DNA of 64,000 nt, from sequence record OX638288; one strand, given 5' to 3'. The position numbers were made by a program, and so were the translations under genes. The notes below the pieces were generated by a model. The model was not told the DNA's origin and made no database searches. It was given only the letters and a program-made list of their open reading frames with translations. The stretch comes from Escherichia phage UP19. Shown in pieces: positions 2,437-62,760 of the stretch; the stretch's first letter is position 1, and the number at the start of each line of letters is the position of its first letter.

Positions 2437-3405
2437 ATGTACAATATTAAGTGTCTGTCCAAATTTGACCAAAATCAGGTTGCTTCTCTTTATGCCTCAG
2501 GTAATTATACCCAAACCGAACTAGCTGATAATTTTGGTGTTTCGGTTGATAGCATTCGTAAAGTCCTGAAAAATGCTGAAGAAGCTAAACGTTCGCAAGT
2601 GGTTATTACCGGAAATATTAAAGTAACGGTTCCTAACGAGCCGCGTGTAGTTCCTGTTGAAGCTACTATTGGCGGTTCTCGTCCGGAAATTATTTGGAAC
2701 GCGAGTTCTAAATTCGTATCCATCACTGAAGGTCGCACAGTATGGAACACTACTAATAAGAACAAACATTTTGATGCCATCGTACAGGCTCTTAAAGAAT
2801 CCCGTTTCGATGACGCGATTAAACTGATTTCCATTAAAGAAGCTGTTAAGGCTTTTGTTAAAGGTAACGTTCGTATTGAAGGTGGACGTCTGGTTTATCA
2901 AGGTATCGAATTGCGTTCAGGGTTGATTGACCGTATTATCACCTCAATGGAAAATGGCGAAGATTTTGAATTCTACCTGCCGTTCCTTGAGAATCTGTTA
3001 GAAAACCCAAGCGAAAAAGCTGTACAGCGTCTGTTCGACTTCCTGGTCGCGAACGATATCAAAATCACTGAAGACGGCCACTTTATCGCATGGAAAGTTG
3101 TTAACTCTGATTATACTGACTGCCGTACCGGTACGTTTGATAACTCACCTGGTAAGCCAGTTAAAATGCCTCGTTCGCGTGTAAATGATGACGACGAAGT
3201 AACTTGTTCAAGTGGTCTGCACGTTTGCTCTCGTAGTTATATTGGTCATTTTGGTAACTCTAACTGTAAAATAGTTTCATGCAAAGTTAACCCGCGTGAT
3301 GTTGTTAGTATCCCGGTCGATTACGGTGATGCTAAAATGCGTGTATGTTATTATGAAGTTCTGGAAGACGTCACTGAACAGTTCGCAAACGAATACAAAT
3401 ACTAA
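2437..3405 (+). CDS. rIIB: rIIB protein
   Basis: 322 aa (T4 rIIB 312 aa); adjacent to rIIA. Confidence 0.85.
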   Translation: MYNIKCLSKFDQNQVASLYASGNYTQTELADNFGVSVDSIRKVLKNAEEAKRSQVVITGNIKVTVPNEPRVVPVEATIGGSRPEIIWNASSKFVSITEGRTVWNTTNKNKHFDAIVQALKESRFDDAIKLISIKEAVKAFVKGNVRIEGGRLVYQGIELRSGLIDRIITSMENGEDFEFYLPFLENLLENPSEKAVQRLFDFLVANDIKITEDGHFIAWKVVNSDYTDCRTGTFDNSPGKPVKMPRSRVNDDDEVTCSSGLHVCSRSYIGHFGNSNCKIVSCKVNPRDVVSIPVDYGDAKMRVCYYEVLEDVTEQFANEYKY

Positions 3406-3443
3406 ATCAATAAACGGAGGCTTCGGCCTCCTAATGAGGAATT

Positions 3444-3641
3444 ATGTTAGGTTACCAAGCACGTGTAATTGAAGAATACGACCAACTGGTCTTGAAAATT
3501 AACGCTCTTGAAGAGTTTATTAAAGGTGGTATTTTTGAAACTCTTGATATCCGTCAACAAGGGTTACTGATTGCCCAACTGGATGCGATGGGTGCATATG
3601 CTCATTGTTTAGAGGTTCGTATTTCTTATTTCGGTGAGTAA
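3444..3641 (+). CDS. hypothetical protein
   Basis: 65 aa ORF preceded by UUCG hairpin plus GAGGA ribosome-binding site. Confidence 0.45.
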   Translation: MLGYQARVIEEYDQLVLKINALEEFIKGGIFETLDIRQQGLLIAQLDAMGAYAHCLEVRISYFGE

Positions 3642-3960
3642 AATGATTAATTACATGAACGTCGGCGACGAAGATATCAAAGATAGTTATCTCCAAGGTA
3701 ATCATGTGGCCGATAAGGTTTATTGTGTAGATGTAATCAAATCTGATAAAGCTACAGGCCATCTTTTTGCAACAGATGTGATTTTCGATTCAGTTGAAAA
3801 CCTTAAAAAATTAGACCACAGTAAATTGAGTGAAAACTCTCGTATCTATTTTGGTAATGTTCACGTCGAAGAATTGTATATTGGTGGTGATTATGAATCC
3901 GTCAAATCCGGGTCTAGTTCGACTGTCGAAGATGCCGACATTTACCCTGAAGACATCTGA
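3634..3960 (+). CDS. hypothetical protein
   Basis: 108 aa ORF, start overlaps upstream stop (coupled). Confidence 0.45.
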   Translation: MSKMINYMNVGDEDIKDSYLQGNHVADKVYCVDVIKSDKATGHLFATDVIFDSVENLKKLDHSKLSENSRIYFGNVHVEELYIGGDYESVKSGSSSTVEDADIYPEDI

Positions 3961-3973
3961 TTTAACGGGTGAA

Positions 3974-4450
3974 ATGAAGGTCAAGATTAAGGATACCGTA
4001 TTGTATTCCTTAAGTCAAGACCCATCCCAAGATAAGAAAGAAGTATTGACTCGGTGTGTCATTGCAACATATGCCGAGTACATGGTTGCTGATTGGTTGA
4101 AAGGATATGTTAATAGTGGTCTGGAAGACCATGACGACCCTTACACCTACGCCTGGGATGTTTTAGCTCATCCTATGTACTGTGGACTACGTGTAGAGGT
4201 CAAGACCCATCAGTCAGATTCTAAGTGGATTTCCTGCACTACAGGATACTCCGGTGACTTCCCTTATGGAACAGGGATAAACCTGGGGCCGCTCTTGAAT
4301 CATAAAGTTGCAGATTGTATAATTATATTCGACACTTCAGTAAATGAGGCAGGCGACGTCCTGTTCACTCCTAAGTTCTCCGGCGACAGAGAATCCATCA
4401 AAAAACTAGTCCGTAAGAGCAATTACAACGGCTGGTATCTCGCATTATAA
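3974..4450 (+). CDS. hypothetical protein in the T4 denB position (identity not confirmed)
   Basis: ORF 3830..4450 trimmed to first non-overlapping ATG; start uncertain (alternatives 3893, 3932). Confidence 0.4.
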   Translation: MKVKIKDTVLYSLSQDPSQDKKEVLTRCVIATYAEYMVADWLKGYVNSGLEDHDDPYTYAWDVLAHPMYCGLRVEVKTHQSDSKWISCTTGYSGDFPYGTGINLGPLLNHKVADCIIIFDTSVNEAGDVLFTPKFSGDRESIKKLVRKSNYNGWYLAL

Positions 4451-4459
4451 TTAAAAAGT

Positions 4460-4489
4460 GTTTACATACGCCATGGATGGTGTTACTAT
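4460..4489 (+). promoter_or_regulatory. T4-type early promoter (GTTTAC -35, TACTAT -10)
   Basis: GTTTAC ... 18 bp ... TACTAT upstream of ORF at 4519. Confidence 0.5.
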
Positions 4490-4518
4490 CTTCCTATCAA
4501 CTACGAGAGGAAAACAAA

Positions 4519-4779
4519 ATGGATATCAAATTATATTACGCTAAACACAAAGTTACAGGTAAAGTTGTTGCCGCCATGTACGATGCCTCAGGTGAAGATG
4601 TTATTACGGAATTATCCCTTTCTAATTGTAGATTTCTTCGTCCATTGCTAGCATCAAAAAAAGATTTACAAAAACTTATCGACGGTAAATTAGATAATGT
4701 CGATGGTATAGATATCCATTATGAACTCCGCCATGCACTGAATGATGGGTTTATGGAAATAAAAGAGGTGGTGTTTTGA
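4519..4779 (+). CDS. hypothetical protein
   Basis: ATG with GAGAGG ribosome-binding site; in frame with ORF 4477..4779. Confidence 0.5.
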   Translation: MDIKLYYAKHKVTGKVVAAMYDASGEDVITELSLSNCRFLRPLLASKKDLQKLIDGKLDNVDGIDIHYELRHALNDGFMEIKEVVF

Positions 4780-4869
4780 GTAGCAAAATGTGGTGCCTTA
4801 TTTGGATGGCCTGTATCCCTATTATTTGTGTATGTTTTAGTTTATTGTTGTGGAAATTAGCATAAATCA

Positions 4870-4898
4870 GTTTACATCTCCATTGGACATGATACTAT
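4870..4898 (+). promoter_or_regulatory. early promoter inside stem-loop cassette (PeSL-like)
   Basis: GTTTACATCTCCATTGG...TACTATAGACC...AATGGAGATG; inverted repeat flanks the -10. Confidence 0.55.
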
Positions 4899-57246: not shown

Positions 57247-57635
57247 TGAATATCGATAAAATGTATTCAGATTTGGACCCTGAAATGAGGACGTCTTGGA
57301 ATAGAGACGTCGCTAAAGCTACAGGGGCCCGTGCAGTAAAAAATAGTTTGTTAGGCATTATTACTACTCGTAAGGGTTCTCGCCCTTTTATGCCTGAATT
57401 TGGTTGTGATATCAGTAATCAACTATTTGAAAATATTACCCCATTAATCACGGATACCATTAAGCGTAATATAGTTTCCGCCGTGCGGAACTTCGAACCC
57501 AGAATTTCTGCTCTTGCCGTAGGAGTTACCCCTGTTTATGATGACAACTCTATTATAGTAACCGTCCAGTTTAGTATTGTTGATGACCCGGATACATTAG
57601 AGCAAATTAGAATCCAGCTCTCACAGAGTGGTTAA
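57246..57635 (+). CDS. 25: gp25 baseplate wedge subunit (gpW / lysozyme-like fold)
   Basis: 129 aa; ...LLGIITTRKGSRPF.PEFGCD...QLFEN..PL..DT..RNI.SAVRN.EPRI... matches recalled T4 gp25. Confidence 0.9.
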   Translation: MNIDKMYSDLDPEMRTSWNRDVAKATGARAVKNSLLGIITTRKGSRPFMPEFGCDISNQLFENITPLITDTIKRNIVSAVRNFEPRISALAVGVTPVYDDNSIIVTVQFSIVDDPDTLEQIRIQLSQSG

Positions 57636-57693
57636 TTGCTGTTCAAATGAATAGTGTATAATGGTCCTATGGTTATTACACAGGAAACATGCG

Positions 57694-58131
57694 ATGAGTA
57701 AAGAGATTGAATATAAATTGGAATCATTCCAAGATGCATTGGATGAAGATTTAAAGATTGATGGGACTCGTTTACAGTATGAAGTACAGAACAACGTTTT
57801 GCTGCACAGCAAATGGCTAAGGCTGTATACGAATTGTAAGAAAGAGATAATGCGATTAGAAATCCAGAAAAAGACCTCTCTTAAGAAGCGTTTAGATTTC
57901 TACACGGGACGTGGAGAGCCTGGTGATGAGGTTTGTATGGACCAATACGAGAAGTCAGAATTAAAGACCGTAATGGCCGCAGATTCTAGCGTGATTAAAA
58001 TAGATACATCAATCCAGTATTGGGCTTTATTACAGGACTTTTGTAGTTCAGCACTGGATGCAGTCAAAGCTAGAGGGTTCTCGTTAAAGAATATGTTGGA
58101 GCTCAGGAAATTTGAAGCAGGTGAAAAATGA
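57694..58131 (+). CDS. uvsY: UvsY recombination mediator
   Basis: ...KLQYE...WL.....KKE.LR.E.QKK..LK.RLD.Y.GRG...MD.YEKSE.KTV..AD..V.K.DTS.QYW..L.DFCS.ALDA.K.RGF matches recalled T4 UvsY; start at internal ATG of ORF 57661. Confidence 0.9.
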   Translation: MSKEIEYKLESFQDALDEDLKIDGTRLQYEVQNNVLLHSKWLRLYTNCKKEIMRLEIQKKTSLKKRLDFYTGRGEPGDEVCMDQYEKSELKTVMAADSSVIKIDTSIQYWALLQDFCSSALDAVKARGFSLKNMLELRKFEAGEK

Positions 58132-58226
58132 GACGTACTAAAAATACCAAACCCATTAAAGTAGATGCCGATAAGATGAAACTTCTCCAAGAATTCATTA
58201 ATGCCGCTTTAGCAAGTAATAAATAG
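58128..58226 (+). CDS. small ORF (32 aa) in the uvsY.-1 position
   Basis: ATGA-coupled to uvsY stop; MRRTKNTKPIKVDADKMKLLQEFINAALASNK. Confidence 0.35.
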   Translation: MRRTKNTKPIKVDADKMKLLQEFINAALASNK

Positions 58227-58254
58227 ATATGTAAGTTAAACTAAGGAGACAATC

Positions 58255-58422
58255 ATGTCAGATAAGATTTGCGTTGTCTGTAAAACTCCAATCGATGCTG
58301 CATTGGTTGTTGAAACAGAAAAAGGTCCGGTTCATCCGGGTTCATGTTATAATTACGTTCAAAGCCTGCCTGTTACGGAAAACACTGAAGAACAGCTGAA
58401 CGAAACCCAATTACTACTTTAG
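58255..58422 (+). CDS. small Cys-containing protein (55 aa) in the uvsY.-2 position
   Basis: strong AAGGAGA ribosome-binding site; MSDKICVVCKTPIDAALVVETEKGPVHPGSCYNY...; followed by terminator. Confidence 0.5.
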   Translation: MSDKICVVCKTPIDAALVVETEKGPVHPGSCYNYVQSLPVTENTEEQLNETQLLL

Positions 58423-58452
58423 TCTAGTGTGTATAGCCATTTTATGGTTATT

Positions 58453-58481
58453 GGCCCTTCCGAAAGGTTGGGCCTTTTTTG
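58453..58481 (+). terminator. intrinsic terminator
   Basis: GGCCCTTCC-GAAA-GGTTGGGCC followed by TTTTTT. Confidence 0.7.
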
Positions 58482-58483
58482 TT

Positions 58484-58711
58484 TTAGAACTCTTCTTGCT
58501 CTTCGTCATCCATAGATTCCAATTCAGCTCGTTTACCTGCTAAGGCATCACGAACACTGATATCGTCCGAATCTCGAAGTTCAGCTTCTTTACTACGAGT
58601 TTTGTAATACTTTTCCAATTCCTTCAAACCGTCCATGGTTTGACAAGAACTAATTTTAGACATGAAGCTCTCGATAGAGGCTTCATAGATAACTTCTTTA
58701 AAGGACTTCAT
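58484..58711 (-). CDS. hypothetical protein with acidic C-terminus
   Basis: 75 aa ORF downstream of HNH gene on minus strand. Confidence 0.45.
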   Translation of the reverse strand: MKSFKEVIYEASIESFMSKISSCQTMDGLKELEKYYKTRSKEAELRDSDDISVRDALAGKRAELESMDDEEQEEF

Positions 58712-59403
58712 AAATCCACCTGTTTCATTAAATTTCTGATTTTGTGACGAGAAAGACCCGTGGCTTCGGAAGCTTGTTTCATCGAGCCATATTCAACACC
58801 ATTTATAGTAACCTTTTTAGCTGCTGGGTTTTTAGATGGGTCTTTATATCTTTCTTTAGCTTTATCTGAAATTTTCTTAGAAGCTTCTGGCGTATGATTT
58901 TTACCATACATGCCGTTGCCAGCACCGGAATTTCTTTCAGATATAGCTTGACATTGTTCTTGCATGTATTTATAAGGATTCGCTTTTTTAGTTGCGGATA
59001 TTTTATCGCCCCATAAAATAGGCCTACCTTTAAATAAATTGCTCATGTATTCTTTATGGGCTTCAGTGTGGTGCTTACCATAAAATGGATTTCCTTCGCC
59101 AGTCTGAAGAATTGCCAATTGTCTACGTTCCCACCCGTATGATTTACTAAATTGTCTTTTATGGGTCCTGGAACTCATACCCATAGAAATAACAGCTTTT
59201 ATGAGACCGTAGTTATTTGGATAAATTTTAGCCAGTAATTTATGAGCTATAAAATGTTCTTCTGGGGTAAGGCGTACTCTATTTTCCCGAGTATCGGGCC
59301 CGCCCATACAAGTCGGGATTATATGATGGGACTCGGTGTACCCGAGAGGTTTAGAAGCCTTTCGGCTTCTAATTAAATTGTCATAAATCTTTTGATAATT
59401 CAA
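58708..59403 (-). CDS. HNH homing endonuclease with NUMOD3-like repeats and C-terminal DNA-binding region
   Basis: 231 aa; HNH core ...ESHHIIP...GGPD...N...LT.EEH...H; two ...GxxNPFYGKHHTEAHK.../...GNGMYGKNHTPEASKK... NUMOD3-like repeats; C-terminal HTH-like ...ASEATGLSRHKIRNLMKQ. Confidence 0.8.
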   Translation of the reverse strand: MNYQKIYDNLIRSRKASKPLGYTESHHIIPTCMGGPDTRENRVRLTPEEHFIAHKLLAKIYPNNYGLIKAVISMGMSSRTHKRQFSKSYGWERRQLAILQTGEGNPFYGKHHTEAHKEYMSNLFKGRPILWGDKISATKKANPYKYMQEQCQAISERNSGAGNGMYGKNHTPEASKKISDKAKERYKDPSKNPAAKKVTINGVEYGSMKQASEATGLSRHKIRNLMKQVDL

Positions 59404-60896
59404 ATTTGGACCTCTTTCATTACGTAATTAAAACGTTCATCTGCGTAACGTTGAATACGTTCAAGACCATGTTTAAGAGCGTAGTTTAAATGAACATATT
59501 TCTTTTTAGCCATAGATGATTTAGGTTTCACACCCATATCATCAATAATATCAAATACCTGGGCTGTTGATTTGGAAGCATGCTTACGTAGTACACGACC
59601 TATGGTCTGAAGTACAATAATTTTTGATTTTACCGGATGAGCAAATACAACATGGTGAAGGTTCTTAACGGAAATACCAGTAGAGAACACACCGTAACTT
59701 GCCACAACAATAATACCCTTACCATTTTCCGCCATTACTTTCAGAGCATTACGCGTTTCGGTATTAACTTCACCTGATACGTAATAAACTTCTTTATGTT
59801 GCTCTTTAACCATTTCAAAAAGAGTTTTACCGTGTTCGATGTTTTTAAACATCAGGAATACATTCTCTTCTTTCTTAGCGAGTTTAACAGCTAAATTAGC
59901 AACCCATTTATTACGACGAGTAGCCTTAGTAATGACCTTTATTTCTGATTGATAATCTTTACCTTTCATCTTAACAGTGAATTCATCCGGATAACGAAGG
60001 AAAATACTGTTGATTTTAAGGTCTGTAACCTGTCCTTCTTCCATTAACTGCGAAGTGGATACCGGCTTAAACACATCACCAAACAAACCCATATATTGCA
60101 TTAAATTAGCTTTACCGTCTTTTAAAGAACCGGACAAACCGAATTTAAACATACAGTTGGTTAGGCCTTCGATGATGGTAGAAATTGATTTACCTGTCGC
60201 CAAATGGCATTCGTCATTCATAAACATACCAAACTGAGCAAACCATTCTTTAGGTTGTTTAATAGCCGTTTGATAAGTTGAAACATAAATCATTGCATCG
60301 GAATCACGTGCAGTACCTGAACGAATACCAAGCATAGCAGCTTTAGGGAACAAACGATAATCGATGAAGTCATTAATCATCTGGTCAACAAGGGCAGTAG
60401 TAGGAACTAAAATAAGGATTTTACCTTCATAGTTCTCAACATAATATCGACTCAGGAGCGCCTGAATCAATGATTTACCTGCGGATGTAGGTAAATTCAG
60501 AATTGCGCGACGTTTTGTCAGACCGTTGTATACGGCTTCATTCTGATACCAATGTGGCTCAATCTTGGTAGAACCCGAATAAATCTCTTGTGAGGCTACC
60601 CATGAGTCAAAATCTTCGCGAGAAATATCTTCCTGTTCAAGAATACGTGGGTCAATCCACAGAGAGTATTCAAACTGGTCAGCGAATTTTTTAATTTGTG
60701 GGACTAGACCATACGGAAGTTTACGGTTATAATCTAGAAGACGAATTCTCCCGTCCCATTGCCCGTACCGGTATTTAGGGTTAAATTTATATCCATCAGC
60801 TTCAAAGCTGAAATAGTCTCTGAGTTCGTAGAAGGTGGATTCATCACACTCAATACGAACATGACTAAAATTATCAAAATGTACTTGAATTTGCAT
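59400..60896 (-). CDS. uvsW: UvsW SF2 DNA helicase
   Basis: 498 aa (T4 UvsW 502 aa); helicase motifs LPTSAGKS, MNDECH; high similarity along recalled T4 UvsW. Confidence 0.95.
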   Translation of the reverse strand: MQIQVHFDNFSHVRIECDESTFYELRDYFSFEADGYKFNPKYRYGQWDGRIRLLDYNRKLPYGLVPQIKKFADQFEYSLWIDPRILEQEDISREDFDSWVASQEIYSGSTKIEPHWYQNEAVYNGLTKRRAILNLPTSAGKSLIQALLSRYYVENYEGKILILVPTTALVDQMINDFIDYRLFPKAAMLGIRSGTARDSDAMIYVSTYQTAIKQPKEWFAQFGMFMNDECHLATGKSISTIIEGLTNCMFKFGLSGSLKDGKANLMQYMGLFGDVFKPVSTSQLMEEGQVTDLKINSIFLRYPDEFTVKMKGKDYQSEIKVITKATRRNKWVANLAVKLAKKEENVFLMFKNIEHGKTLFEMVKEQHKEVYYVSGEVNTETRNALKVMAENGKGIIVVASYGVFSTGISVKNLHHVVFAHPVKSKIIVLQTIGRVLRKHASKSTAQVFDIIDDMGVKPKSSMAKKKYVHLNYALKHGLERIQRYADERFNYVMKEVQI

Positions 60897-60910
60897 GTCT
60901 AATTCTCAGT

Positions 60911-60932
60911 TATAAATATAACTATATTTATA
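60911..60932. promoter_or_regulatory. divergent late promoters (TATAAATA on both strands) for uvsW (-) and downstream + strand gene
   Basis: forward TATAAATA 60911..60918; reverse complement of 60925..60932 is TATAAATA. Confidence 0.55.
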
Positions 60933-60951
60933 CACCAACAAGAGACTAATT

Positions 60952-61623
60952 ATGGATACTCAATATATTGAAGAGCTTCGTGCACTCGAAGATAAAAAAG
61001 AAGCTAAAGCTAAGTTAATCGAATACGGCGAACAGTTCGGTTTAAAACTTAAGAAAACCCGTTCGTTTGATAATTTGGTTATCGATATCTCTGAAGGCCT
61101 TAAAGCCTTGGCTGATGAACCACATCCAGAAACCGAAGGTTTGTCTATTTCTGATTTGATTGATGCTGCCGACGAACTAACAGGCGCTAAAGAATTTGTT
61201 GATGGTGCTGAACCTGCCAAAGAAGAGGCTACCCTATTATTTGATGCCCCTGAAGCGGTAGTTGAAGTTATTGAGGTAGCCGAACTCCCTAAGGTAGAGA
61301 TTATTGAAGAAGATGTTCCTTTTGTCGAAGAGAAATTCAAAGAGGCTGTAGCCGAGGTTATTGAATCTGAAAAACCTGTATTCTCTTTGCCTGAAAACTT
61401 TAGTCCTAATCTTTTGCTTATTGGTAAAAACCCTGGTTACTGTACTGTTCCTTGGTGGATTTATCAATGGATTTCTGAAACCCCTGATTGGAAAGAACGT
61501 CCTAAAGATTTCCAACACCCTTCTGCCCACCAAACATTATTCAGTCTGATTTATTACATCAATCGTAATGGCTCAGTATTAGTACGTGAAACACGTAATT
61601 CATCTTTTGTAACTTTAAAATAA
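60952..61623 (+). CDS. hypothetical protein in the T4 inh position (possible prohead protease inhibitor; identity not confirmed)
   Basis: 223 aa; acidic central region; position between uvsW and hoc. Confidence 0.4.
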   Translation: MDTQYIEELRALEDKKEAKAKLIEYGEQFGLKLKKTRSFDNLVIDISEGLKALADEPHPETEGLSISDLIDAADELTGAKEFVDGAEPAKEEATLLFDAPEAVVEVIEVAELPKVEIIEEDVPFVEEKFKEAVAEVIESEKPVFSLPENFSPNLLLIGKNPGYCTVPWWIYQWISETPDWKERPKDFQHPSAHQTLFSLIYYINRNGSVLVRETRNSSFVTLK

Positions 61624-61632
61624 GGGTAAACT

Positions 61633-62760
61633 ATGGCTTTTACTGTAAGTATAGCCGGCACAGCGTCTATTAAAATAGGCGAAAGTGCTAACTACACTGC
61701 TACCGCAACAGGTGCAGCTGTAGAAGGAACCATTACATATGTATGGTCTATTGATGGTGCTTCTAATCCAGAAGCAACCAATGTTTTGAAATATACAGGT
61801 GCTTCACCTGCAGGTAAGAAAGTTTTAAAAGTAGTAGCAACTTCTACTCCAGCTGAAGGCGAACCTGAGGTAGCTGAAGATACTTTTGAAGTTACCGTAG
61901 CTAATAAGACCATGTCTATTTCTTTGGCTTTGGACCCTATTTCTGTTTCTAAAGAAGTTGGCCAATCTCAAGTTGTTACTGCTAACGTGACGGGTGCACC
62001 TGCAGGTGCAACAATCGCTTATGTTTGGAAACGTAACACTAGCGTAATATCAGGTCAAACCGGTAAAACTATTACCATAACCGAAGCGGCGGAAGCAAAT
62101 TACACTTTGAACTGTGAAGTTACTGTTACCGCCCCTGAATATGACCCGGCTACCGCTACCAAAGGTGTTGCGGTAACTTTTGTTAAGAAAACTATGTCAG
62201 GTGTTTCTGTTACTTTAACGCCAACCTCTATTAATGTTCCTGAAGGAACTCCGGCTTCTTTTAAAGCTACCGTAGTCGGCGCACCTGCTGGTGCTACTTT
62301 TGCTTATTCTTGGAAGAAAGACGGTTCATCAGTCGCAGGTGCCACAGATACTTTAGTGGTTGATACTAGTGCTGAAGGTTCGCAGGTTATTGAAGTTTCT
62401 GTTGTTGTTTCGGCTACCAACTATAATCCTGTGACCGTCACAAAATCCGGTAATGTAACAATTACGGCTAAAGTCGCTCCTGAACCGGAAGGTGAACTAC
62501 CTTATGTACACCCACTTCCTGTTCGTAATTCAGCGTATATTTGGGCCGGCTGGTGGGTTATGGATGAAATCCAGAAAATGACCCTTGAAGGTAAAGACTG
62601 GAAAACTGATGACCCTGATAGCGATTATTATCTCCATCGCTATACTCTTCAAAAAATGGTTGCCGATTATCCAGAGGTTGATGTACAAGAATCACGTAAT
62701 GGAAGAATTATCCATCGCACCGCTTTAGAAGCTGGTATTATATACGATTACGTTTATTAA
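61633..62760 (+). CDS. hoc: Hoc highly immunogenic outer capsid protein
   Basis: 375 aa (T4 Hoc 376 aa); three Ig-like repeats then C-terminal capsid-binding domain. Confidence 0.85.
   Translation: MAFTVSIAGTASIKIGESANYTATATGAAVEGTITYVWSIDGASNPEATNVLKYTGASPAGKKVLKVVATSTPAEGEPEVAEDTFEVTVANKTMSISLALDPISVSKEVGQSQVVTANVTGAPAGATIAYVWKRNTSVISGQTGKTITITEAAEANYTLNCEVTVTAPEYDPATATKGVAVTFVKKTMSGVSVTLTPTSINVPEGTPASFKATVVGAPAGATFAYSWKKDGSSVAGATDTLVVDTSAEGSQVIEVSVVVSATNYNPVTVTKSGNVTITAKVAPEPEGELPYVHPLPVRNSAYIWAGWWVMDEIQKMTLEGKDWKTDDPDSDYYLHRYTLQKMVADYPEVDVQESRNGRIIHRTALEAGIIYDYVY

Follow-up and report, generated by a model that had tools for sequence, protein, structure and literature searches.

A Mob-type free-standing HNH homing endonuclease gene between uvsW and uvsW.1 in Escherichia phage UP19

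A stretch of 64,000 nucleotides (nt) of Escherichia phage UP19 (sequence record OX638288), called the window hereafter, carries a homing endonuclease gene wedged between the helicase gene uvsW and the small gene uvsW.1. The element is a free-standing HNH homing endonuclease of the Mob type, a type known from phage T4, and is not a new kind of element. As a gene of the MobE/I-TevI type, it probably entered a JS10-like Dhakavirus as a cassette of 692 bp and spreads by homing. The architecture of the junctions between cassette and host gene is tidy, and has not been described before. A preliminary description, made from the letters of the window, had proposed a mobile free-standing endonuclease of Mob type; this is borne out by the domains of the protein, the absence of an Rfam intron, the patchy occurrence of the gene at an otherwise intact site, and a conservation higher than that of its flanks. 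Local gene exchange and marker exclusion in T-even phages are believed to be driven in large part by free-standing homing endonucleases. To our knowledge, very few enzymes belonging to their HNH (Mob) class have been studied in detail.

The cassette, its boundaries and its occurrence

The genes and tails involved are the following (open reading frame, ORF; amino acids, aa; an asterisk denotes a stop codon).

58484–58711, minus strand: uvsW.1, 75 aa (PF11637, E 1.9e-24; phrog_1143, E 6.7e-38)
58708–58728, minus strand: native uvsW tail ATGAAACAGGTGGATTTATGA (MKQVDL*), the right-hand one of two imperfect 21-nt direct repeats, matching the uvsW 3' ends of JS10 and NC-G letter for letter
58708–59403, minus strand: endonuclease ORF, 231 aa, TTG start, with an HNH head followed by two NUMOD3 repeats and a probable helix-turn-helix (HTH) tail (ORF list, Pfam, PHROGs, MobE identity)
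58723–59414, minus strand: inserted cassette, 692 bp, relative to the endonuclease-free JS10 and NC-G (junction alignments)
59400–59420, minus strand: replacement uvsW tail ATGAAAGAGGTCCAAATTTGA (MKEVQI*), left copy of the repeat
59400–60896, minus strand: uvsW helicase gene, 498 aa, which receives the insertion (UvsW_N, E 1.1e-43; ResIII; Helicase_C)

From the start of uvsW to the end of uvsW.1 the window measures 2413 nt, as against 1721 nt for JS10 and NC-G, and the insert is therefore 692 bp long. Alignment of the junctions sets its edges at 58723 and 59414, relative to JS10 and NC-G, with an ambiguity due to a common ATGAAA. The empty site reads, on the minus strand, ...AATTACGTA ATGAAACAGGTGGATTTATGA AGTCC...; there the UvsW C-terminus is MKQVDL*, and in JS10 and NC-G uvsW and uvsW.1 overlap by ATGA. 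The insertion point lies six codons ahead of the uvsW stop.

Both junctions serve two genes at a time. The codons of the replacement tail (AAAGAGGT) double as the Shine-Dalgarno sequence of the endonuclease (GAGG at 59411–59414), 6 nt upstream of the TTG, and the uvsW stop and the TTG start overlap as TTGA at 59400–59403. At the opposite side the cassette supplies no stop codon for the endonuclease, whose 3' end reads AATTTA ATGAAACAGGTGGATTTATGA (...NLMKQVDL*): the native uvsW tail makes up its final 6 codons and stop, and carries in addition the Shine-Dalgarno sequence of uvsW.1 and an ATGA overlap with the uvsW.1 start. The direct repeats around the cassette are identical at 15 of 21 positions. 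As a result uvsW, endonuclease and uvsW.1 are all intact, and linked stop to start.

The preliminary description had placed the gene between the uvsY cluster and uvsW. Its 231-aa and 75-aa minus-strand ORFs are real and agree in coordinates with the ORF list; the site proper lies between uvsW, on one side, and uvsW.1, on the other. The 75-aa ORF, described there as trailing the HNH gene and included in the coordinates given (58484–59403), is uvsW.1 (PF11637, phrog_1143), which by these matches is no part of the insert, but a core gene located 3' of the endonuclease. This gene is conserved in all T4-like phages (Nolan et al. 2006, PMC1524935), throughout which uvsW and uvsW.1 are distinct genes (PMC1524935).

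The window phage belongs to the JS98/JS10 group of Dhakavirus, as denoted by megablast of positions 57600–61000. The closest flanks are those of NC-G, dhaeg and JS10 (95–96% identical). Most relatives align over 80% of the query and miss exactly the endonuclease; 100% query coverage was observed only in PSD2002 and ESCO10. Among ~31 distinct Dhakavirus records listed, 2 feature the window-type gene, 3 (Bp7, UGJNEcP3, UGJNEcP4) an insert of the Bp7 type between the same two genes, and all others are empty, so that the gene is not uniformly present among relatives. In JS10, NC-G, AnYang, IME08, WG01, KIT01 and JS98 the two genes overlap by ATGA with no gene in between. The distance between uvsW and uvsW.1 measures 692–730 nt in carriers of the window type, 779 nt in Bp7, and 0–41 nt in empty genomes. 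No homing endonuclease genes are recorded for JS98 and JS10 (Petrov et al. 2010, PMC2993671, Table 5).

Insertions at this one point are known from Dhakavirus, Gaprivervirus, Tequatrovirus (including T6), Klebsiella phages and Bragavirus. Full-length orthologs, 57–97% identical, adjoin uvsW in roughly 73–91 phage records including T6 (tblastn; the range is an estimate from an even-step listing of the matches), and a matching uvsW 3' end is found in about 1,064 records. T4 has no gene at this site. Two of the 22 uvsW.1 loci in IMG/VR are carriers. The exact 231-aa protein is on record once, in the Logan assembly of run ERR11523140, in identical context. GenBank labels for orthologs at the site vary ("homing endonuclease", "MobE", "GIY-YIG", "hypothetical").

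This junction design returns with every ortholog at the site, some details being absent in some genera. KEV(Q/K)(I/L)* terminates UvsW in all four Dhakavirus carriers compared (window, PSD2002, ESCO10, Bp7), as in three of three Tequatrovirus carriers, and MKQVDL* terminates it in all empty-site Dhakavirus genomes. In Tequatrovirus ACG-C40 UvsW ends in KEVKL* and the endonuclease in KTVNL*, the native tail of T4. The endonuclease of Gaprivervirus SP18 ends in IKQVEI*, the same as the native tail. Where an empty-site comparator is available (Dhakavirus, Gaprivervirus, Tequatrovirus), the last codons of the endonuclease are those of the native uvsW tail of the genus. The KEVKL* tail of Bragavirus PM2 fits the pattern, without an empty-site comparator, and Wolf_ER13, a Klebsiella phage, shows it less clearly; uvsW has retained the native tail in SP18 and Wolf_ER13. 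The endonuclease start overlaps the uvsW TGA in every genus. The initiation codon is TTG in three of them, whereas PM2 uses GTG and the Klebsiella phage ATG.

As the preliminary description had stated, no other homing endonuclease gene is found in the 64-kb window by tblastn with T4 MobE, I-TevI, SegE and the Bp7 endonuclease. No Rfam family rises above noise at 57500–61200, the ORF has a start codon and a Shine-Dalgarno sequence of its own, and uvsW and uvsW.1 are separate ORFs in empty-site relatives; the endonuclease is consequently free-standing, and an intron or intein setting was rejected, nothing relevant being found in Rfam.

Additional irregularities of uvsW were noted in carriers. 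In Proteus phage PM2 a 291-aa ORF (locus positions 746–1621) splits uvsW into two ORFs annotated as DNA helicase; its N-terminus features a weak TnsA-like endonuclease match (E 2.6e-4, under cut-off), and an HNH gene lies downstream too. The 291-aa ORF could thus represent another mobile element within uvsW. In ACG-C40 uvsW lies between two endonuclease genes, a segE-like GIY-YIG gene upstream (locus positions 376–993; PF19835, E 3e-9) and the HNH ortholog downstream (2501–3193). In Bp7 uvsW (locus positions 3386–4889) is annotated as two pieces. It measures 1504 nt, against the 1497 nt of its relatives, and the deposited sequence contains a frameshift, to be ascribed either to a sequencing error or to a pseudogene.

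The endonuclease and its expression signals

The modules of the protein are diagrammed by position as follows.

59242–59334, minus strand: HNH catalytic core, residues 24–54, ESHHIIPTCMGGPDTRENRVRLTPEEHFIAH (invariant columns; alignments to McrA, Cas8-HNH and IscB; MobE)
59023–59106, minus strand: NUMOD3 repeat 1, residues 100–127, GEGNPFYGKHHTEAHK... (Pfam; BLASTP to I-TevI residues 170–197; tblastn)
58867–58950, minus strand: NUMOD3 repeat 2, residues 152–179, GAGNGMYGKNHTPEASKKIS (best NUMOD3 stretch)
58741–58842, minus strand: putative I-TevI-like C-terminal DNA-binding segment (HTH), residues 188–221 (1I3J profile match)

The core follows the pattern E24-S-H26-H27-I-I-P...G34-G35...N41...H50...H54, constant across eight orthologs, and residues E24, H26, H27, N41, H50 and H54 are unchanged in all eight, which span five genera. 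The Pfam HNH family (PF01844) is matched by seven of the eight same-site orthologs (best E 6e-6). When compared with PDB, the profile of the orthologs matches the HNH domain of McrA (6GHC, E 3.8e-4), and further HNH domains of a group II intron maturase, Cas8-HNH and IscB. Residues 1–72 are 59% identical to T4 MobE (BLASTP, E 9e-28), with no BLASTP alignment to MobE past residue 72; T4 MobD was also found (tblastn, 32%). The PHROGs family phrog_655, "homing endonuclease", covers residues 1–129 (E 8.4e-54). The HNH assignment thus rests on the orthologs, the PDB profile search and the identity to MobE.

NUMOD3 (PF07460) is matched in two stretches (E 1.6e-11; 44.3 bits, gathering cut-off 20.4), and in all eight orthologs. 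The ortholog profile aligns residues 145–221 to the DNA-binding domain of I-TevI (1I3J, E 5e-5). On the single sequence PF20987 scores 13.5 bits (cut-off 27, E 0.067), and TIGR01453 is under its cut-off (E 1.2e-7). No GIY-YIG domain was found by Pfam in the window endonuclease or its orthologs. By these matches the protein combines an HNH head of the MobE type with a tail, probably of the I-TevI type, made by two NUMOD3 repeats and a putative HTH; it is a member of the HNH superfamily, of Mob type in the head, and no mobE ortholog. The HNH core and the two NUMOD3-like repeats of the preliminary description were thus recovered, and its C-terminal HTH-like segment found support at the profile level, the single-sequence Pfam score being under cut-off.

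Putative signals of the transcription unit are the following.

60925–60932, minus strand: late promoter motif of the T4 type, TATAAATA, its end 28 nt ahead of the uvsW ATG (motif)
59351–59372, minus strand: RNA hairpin UUAGAAGCC-GAAA-GGCUUCUAA, endonuclease codons 11–18 (z -3.6 to -3.95)
58453–58485: stem-loop GGCCCTTCCGAAAGGTTGGGCC with a subsequent T run, where uvsW.1 and uvsY.-2 converge (read from the sequence)

The motif at 60925–60932 is the presumed promoter, and the stem-loop at 58453–58485 the presumed bidirectional terminator, of a uvsW-endonuclease-uvsW.1 transcript. A conserved bidirectional terminator resides downstream of uvsW.1 in T4-like phages (PMC1524935). No excess of sigma-70-like promoters was found. 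In the 55-bp divergent intergenic region between inh and uvsW, two TATAAATA motifs are placed back to back (60911–60918, plus strand; 60925–60932, minus strand).

Hairpins of other sequence occur at the same position in all seven other uvsW-site endonucleases (six orthologs and the Bp7 type), as in T4 mobE; compared with the window, the SP18 hairpin features one compensatory and two wobble changes. No U-tract is found 3' of the window hairpin. In T4 mobE, where a U-tract comes next, the 5' hairpin acts as a partial intrinsic terminator and stops about 30% of transcripts (PMC2988022). That a 5' hairpin characterises the MNYQKIYD-HNH family at large was rejected, the most stable 40-nt window being found there in only ~12 of 61 diverse IMG/VR homologs; the observation is limited to orthologs at the uvsW site, to the Bp7 type and to T4 mobE. 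Pairing of the Shine-Dalgarno sequence with an ACCUC stretch after the hairpin is predicted in the window, and in weaker versions in SP18 and ACG-C40.

An internal TATAAATA motif lies within the endonuclease ORF at 58967–58974 (minus strand, sense direction, codons P-Y-K-Y), 267 nt before the ORF end. It is identical in PSD2002, ESCO10 and SP18, despite a synonymous divergence (dS) of ~1.4 with SP18, and is not found in the Klebsiella, Proteus, Tequatrovirus or Bp7-type genes, being kept only in the Dhakavirus and Gaprivervirus orthologs. As read from the motif, it could be a late promoter feeding uvsW.1, or occur by chance. As a uvsW.1 promoter it was set aside: one match per 692 bp is near chance, and its conservation is narrow.

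Selection, the 3' tract of uvsW and alternative explanations

The ratio of nonsynonymous (dN) to synonymous divergence of the endonuclease is 0.05–0.10 in all pairs of window, PSD2002, ESCO10 and SP18 (Nei-Gojobori), even at a dS of ~1.4. By these ratios the gene is under strong purifying selection, and the protein looks functional. Among the three Dhakavirus carriers the dS of the endonuclease is 0.15–0.22, that of uvsW codons 1–423 is 0.36–0.76, and that of uvsW.1 is 0.36–1.87. In these genomes, accordingly, the element is younger than the sequence around it. The window uvsW body is 98% JS10/NC-G-like, the window endonuclease 95% PSD2002/ESCO10-like; the backbone matches JS10/NC-G at 98–100% right up to a hypervariable tract, and the mosaic breakpoints are at or near the cassette ends. 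The low dS of the endonuclease and the JS10/NC-G backbone argue for a recent transfer into different backgrounds.

The adjoining uvsW.1 (58484–58711) is unusually variable in Dhakavirus (pairwise identity 83–99.6%). JS10 and NC-G differ by 9% in uvsW.1, and are 98.5% identical in uvsW; the first ~60 nt of the window uvsW.1 are identical in JS10, NC-G and ESCO10.

A further feature marks uvsW next to the insertion.

59403–59625, minus strand: hypervariable uvsW 3' tract, linked in Dhakavirus and Tequatrovirus to the presence of the endonuclease (mismatch counts, dS, fixed columns)

In ten Dhakavirus genomes uvsW diversity is 0.01–0.14 over the first ~1,260 nt and 0.13–0.225 (peak 0.225) in the last 240 nt, where it approaches or equals the divergence from Gaprivervirus. 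The window and JS10 genes differ by 73 mismatches, 47 of which reside in the last ~226 nt (from nt 1272, window position 59625). PSD2002 and WG01, which belong to the same species, differ by 80, 64 of which reside in the last ~226 nt, with the same start position; for ACG-C40 and T4 the count is 75, with 46 in the last ~240 nt. From uvsW body to tract, dS rises from 0.06–0.12 to 0.78 or saturation (about 6- to 17-fold or more; 0.10 to 1.7 in the window), and dN from about 0 to 0.09–0.145. All 13 columns separating four carriers from six empty genomes sit at window positions 59403–59610. The tracts of carriers differ from those of empty genomes, which are near uniform, and from one another. The window tract, whose best database match is only 85%, is a patchwork in which all bases but one are seen in some other allele; some segments are AnYang/WG01-like, those closer to the insertion Gaprivervirus-like. 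From this pattern the tract is likely a zone of endonuclease target or co-conversion.

Within the tract, the conserved 23-mer AAAAAGAAATATGTTCATTTGAA (equivalent to window 59485–59507) occurs in 10 of the 20 distinct empty alleles but in only 1 of the 10 carrier alleles. Of the same alleles, 14 of 20 empty ones and 1 of 10 carrier ones retain its TTG Leu codon (Fisher 0.005, uncorrected for phylogeny), which is changed to TTA, CTA, CTT or ATA in carriers. In a set of 12 Dhakavirus and Gaprivervirus genomes the TTG/23-mer marker holds without exception. The 23-mer is a candidate recognition site, nothing firmer.

The course of events may be pictured as follows, drawing on the precedents of Mob and Seg endonucleases (PMC2988022). 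The cassette brings a substitute UvsW C-terminus, KEVQI*, and the native tail is now the end of the endonuclease. The three genes would be co-transcribed late from the uvsW late promoter, and endonuclease output kept low by coupling to uvsW translation and by the weak TTG start; the hairpin, ~30 nt into the coding region, might provide further attenuation. In mixed infections, by analogy, the endonuclease would nick or cut the uvsW 3' region of an endonuclease-free relative, at a site predicted roughly 80–225 bp upstream of the insertion point. Recombinational repair of the T4 type would then copy the cassette, and a variable length of flanking uvsW, into the cut genome ("intronless homing"), and carriers would be protected by substitutions in the uvsW 3' tract.

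Several observations weigh against this account. The uvsW genes of SP18 (carrier) and VR7 (empty) differ by 126 mismatches, of which 9 fall in the last ~240 nt, with no excess; a recent gain in SP18, or an exact loss in VR7 via near-perfect repeats, would fit. The tract diverges more among carriers than the endonuclease does, which contradicts co-conversion from a single donor as its origin; recurrent heterologous homing followed by patchy repair, or an escape from a competing endonuclease of the Bp7 type, would fit instead. The Klebsiella-phage carrier Wolf_ER13 keeps the 23-mer and several empty genomes are without it, so that in the wider set the TTG/23-mer fails as a universal marker of uncut targets. 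As a single sequence, the window protein matches Pfam HNH at E 0.22, which is not significant. Sequestration of the Shine-Dalgarno sequence by the ACCUC stretch was dropped, as none is predicted for PSD2002 or ESCO10. Finally, the literature searched yielded no published account of an endonuclease between uvsW and uvsW.1.

A different history would make the gene an old, vertically inherited resident which no longer homes, its patchiness resulting from exact losses via the 21-nt repeats, and the tract being an unrelated recombination hot spot. Direct repeats able to restore an exact empty site are indeed present, and are near perfect in SP18 (ATTAAACAGGTGGAAAT[T/A]T[G/A]A, vs 15/21 in the window); the uvsW 3' ends of SP18 and VR7 are almost identical, as after a recent deletion, and one site across five genera is compatible with an ancient presence. 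We nevertheless regard this history as unlikely, since the endonucleases of carriers are more alike than both flanks (dS 0.15–0.22 vs 0.36–1.87) and the window backbone is 98–100% of the endonuclease-free JS10/NC-G type up to the tract. Moreover, purifying selection acts on the whole protein, catalytic residues included, which is unexpected for a defunct element, and all the fixed uvsW differences between carriers and empty genomes adjoin the insertion.

That the gene is a domesticated nuclease serving mainly in competition between phages, where it would cut co-infecting relatives and so shut out their markers or genomes, its own copying being incidental, is largely the same as homing with a change of emphasis, and has a small chance of being the better description. 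T4 homing endonucleases account for the marker exclusion of T2 (PMC2988022), homologs of the nuclease head occur in many unrelated phages, including Vibrio phage ICP1, and the target is a recombination helicase region next to uvsY; yet the gene is rare in the genus (about 2 of 31), unlike a generally advantageous weapon, and no sequence feature singles out a role in competition. It is very improbable that the protein is a sequence-specific DNA-binding regulator with a degenerate HNH-like motif, as the single-sequence E-value of 0.22 and the DNA-binding modules (about two thirds of the protein) might suggest, given that H26, H27, N41, H50 and H54 are invariant in eight orthologs of five genera, seven of the eight match Pfam HNH, and the head is 59% identical to MobE, an active nicking enzyme (PMC2988022).

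Within the homing interpretation, the last ~226 nt of uvsW might tentatively be viewed as a battleground of window-type and Bp7-type endonucleases. The extreme divergence of the tract at silent sites and in amino acids, seen specifically in carriers and exceeding that of the endonuclease, would then record repeated target escape and patchwork repair; we consider this a possibility with the odds against it. The two types have one nuclease head, the insertion point and the 5' junction in common, and different DNA-binding tails. If correct, the locus would be the free-standing counterpart of the competition between intron endonucleases (Goodrich-Blair and Shub 1996, cited in PMC2988022), and the tail-swap design an adaptation for living in the coding end of an important gene, in five genera. 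The locus is a clean natural experiment, in that the carrier is otherwise ~98% identical to the endonuclease-free JS10 and NC-G, and the boundaries are known to the base; the sharply bounded uvsW tract and the second endonuclease type at the same site add to its value. It opens the way to the analysis of the cut position of Mob-type enzymes relative to their gene, the length of co-conversion tracts, and the diversification of a host gene by rival endonucleases. In phage therapy genomics, it accounts for the uvsW genes of these phages being often annotated in pieces or accompanied by a stray "hypothetical protein".

Related systems and neighbouring variation

T4 MobE resembles the window gene in being free-standing and wedged between two genes of one operon (nrdA and nrdB), in the overlap of its start codon with the upstream stop, that of nrdA (PMC2988022), and in the GC-rich hairpin ~30 nt into the coding region. 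MobE differs in measuring 141 aa, with a C-terminal region unrelated to the two NUMOD3 repeats and putative HTH, and in starting at an ATG, at nrdA/nrdB rather than at uvsW/uvsW.1; the targets presumably differ too. Unlike the mobE hairpin, a partial terminator with a U-tract, the window hairpin lacks the latter. Target nicking, and over-inheritance in crosses, are on record for both MobE and MobA (Edgell et al. 2010, PMC2988022), and free-standing endonucleases cut away from their own gene (PMC2988022).

The likeness to I-TevI concerns residues 145–221, which the ortholog profile aligns to its DNA-binding domain over a NUMOD3-type element and a putative C-terminal HTH. I-TevI is otherwise a GIY-YIG nuclease encoded within the td group I intron of T4, unlike the HNH, free-standing window protein. 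The plan of I-HmuI, encoded by an intron of Bacillus phage SPO1, is an N-terminal HNH domain, NUMOD-type modules and a C-terminal HTH, as appears to be the case in the window protein. I-HmuI is a nicking enzyme (PMC2988022) and, unlike the free-standing window gene, is intron-encoded. It is absent from the PDB matches of the ortholog profile up to E 1, and PF22083 is touched weakly by one of the eight orthologs (E 0.044). Membership in the I-HmuI family was rejected, as there is no sequence match and no intron. The preliminary description had likened the protein to both Mob and I-Hmu enzymes: the first likeness holds for the MobE head, the second is an analogy of architecture only.

T4 SegE is a free-standing GIY-YIG endonuclease located between inh and uvsW, with uvsW as target gene (PMC2988022, Table 1). 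Like the window gene it is a free-standing homing endonuclease gene beside uvsW; it belongs to another nuclease family, and lies at the 5' end of uvsW, the window gene at the 3' end. The HNH gene therefore does not take the place of the T4 seg gene, as had been proposed. The T4 SegE query found nothing in the 64-kb window (tblastn), and the inh-uvsW interval of the window (60897–60951, 55 bp) holds no gene.

Bp7 gp019, an HNH protein of 260 aa, shares with the window the insertion point, a replacement tail (MKEVQL*), the TTGA overlap, the MNYQKIYD... HNH head (54% identity over 65 residues), and a hairpin at the same position. Beyond the head it is unalignable to the window protein (~54% nucleotide identity, the noise level), and its 3' junction differs, featuring no relic of the native uvsW tail.

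In the case of Aeh1 MobE and T4 MobA an HNH gene is likewise inserted in a host coding sequence, with host function kept (PMC2988022). Those insertions cut the host gene into two functional polypeptides; UvsW, in contrast, stays one polypeptide, only its last six codons being displaced, and a cassette-borne copy substitutes for them.

Pfam and PHROGs searches of the neighbours assign 57661–58131 (plus strand) to uvsY and 58255–58422 (plus strand) to uvsY.-2 (DUF2685). A patch including the uvsY 3' end and a 32-aa ORF (58056–58152) is 55–74% identical to Dhakavirus relatives, the neighbouring sequence 97–100%. IME08 and KIT01 have additional DNA or ORFs in the interval from uvsY.-2 to gene 25, the additional ORF of KIT01 (197 aa) featuring at most a weak Bro-N match. 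Judging by these alignments, the region from the uvsY end, and from uvsY.-2 to gene 25, appears to be a second local hot spot of indels and mosaicism.

Two genes upstream of uvsW, with inh in between, a hoc-like head decoration gene (61633–62760, plus strand, 375 aa, weak Ig-domain matches) marks another mosaic boundary. It is of the JS10 type at 83–95% identity, and only 54–67% identical, over much of its length, to PSD2002, Bp7, NC-G and ESCO10, in which parts of the gene are unaligned.

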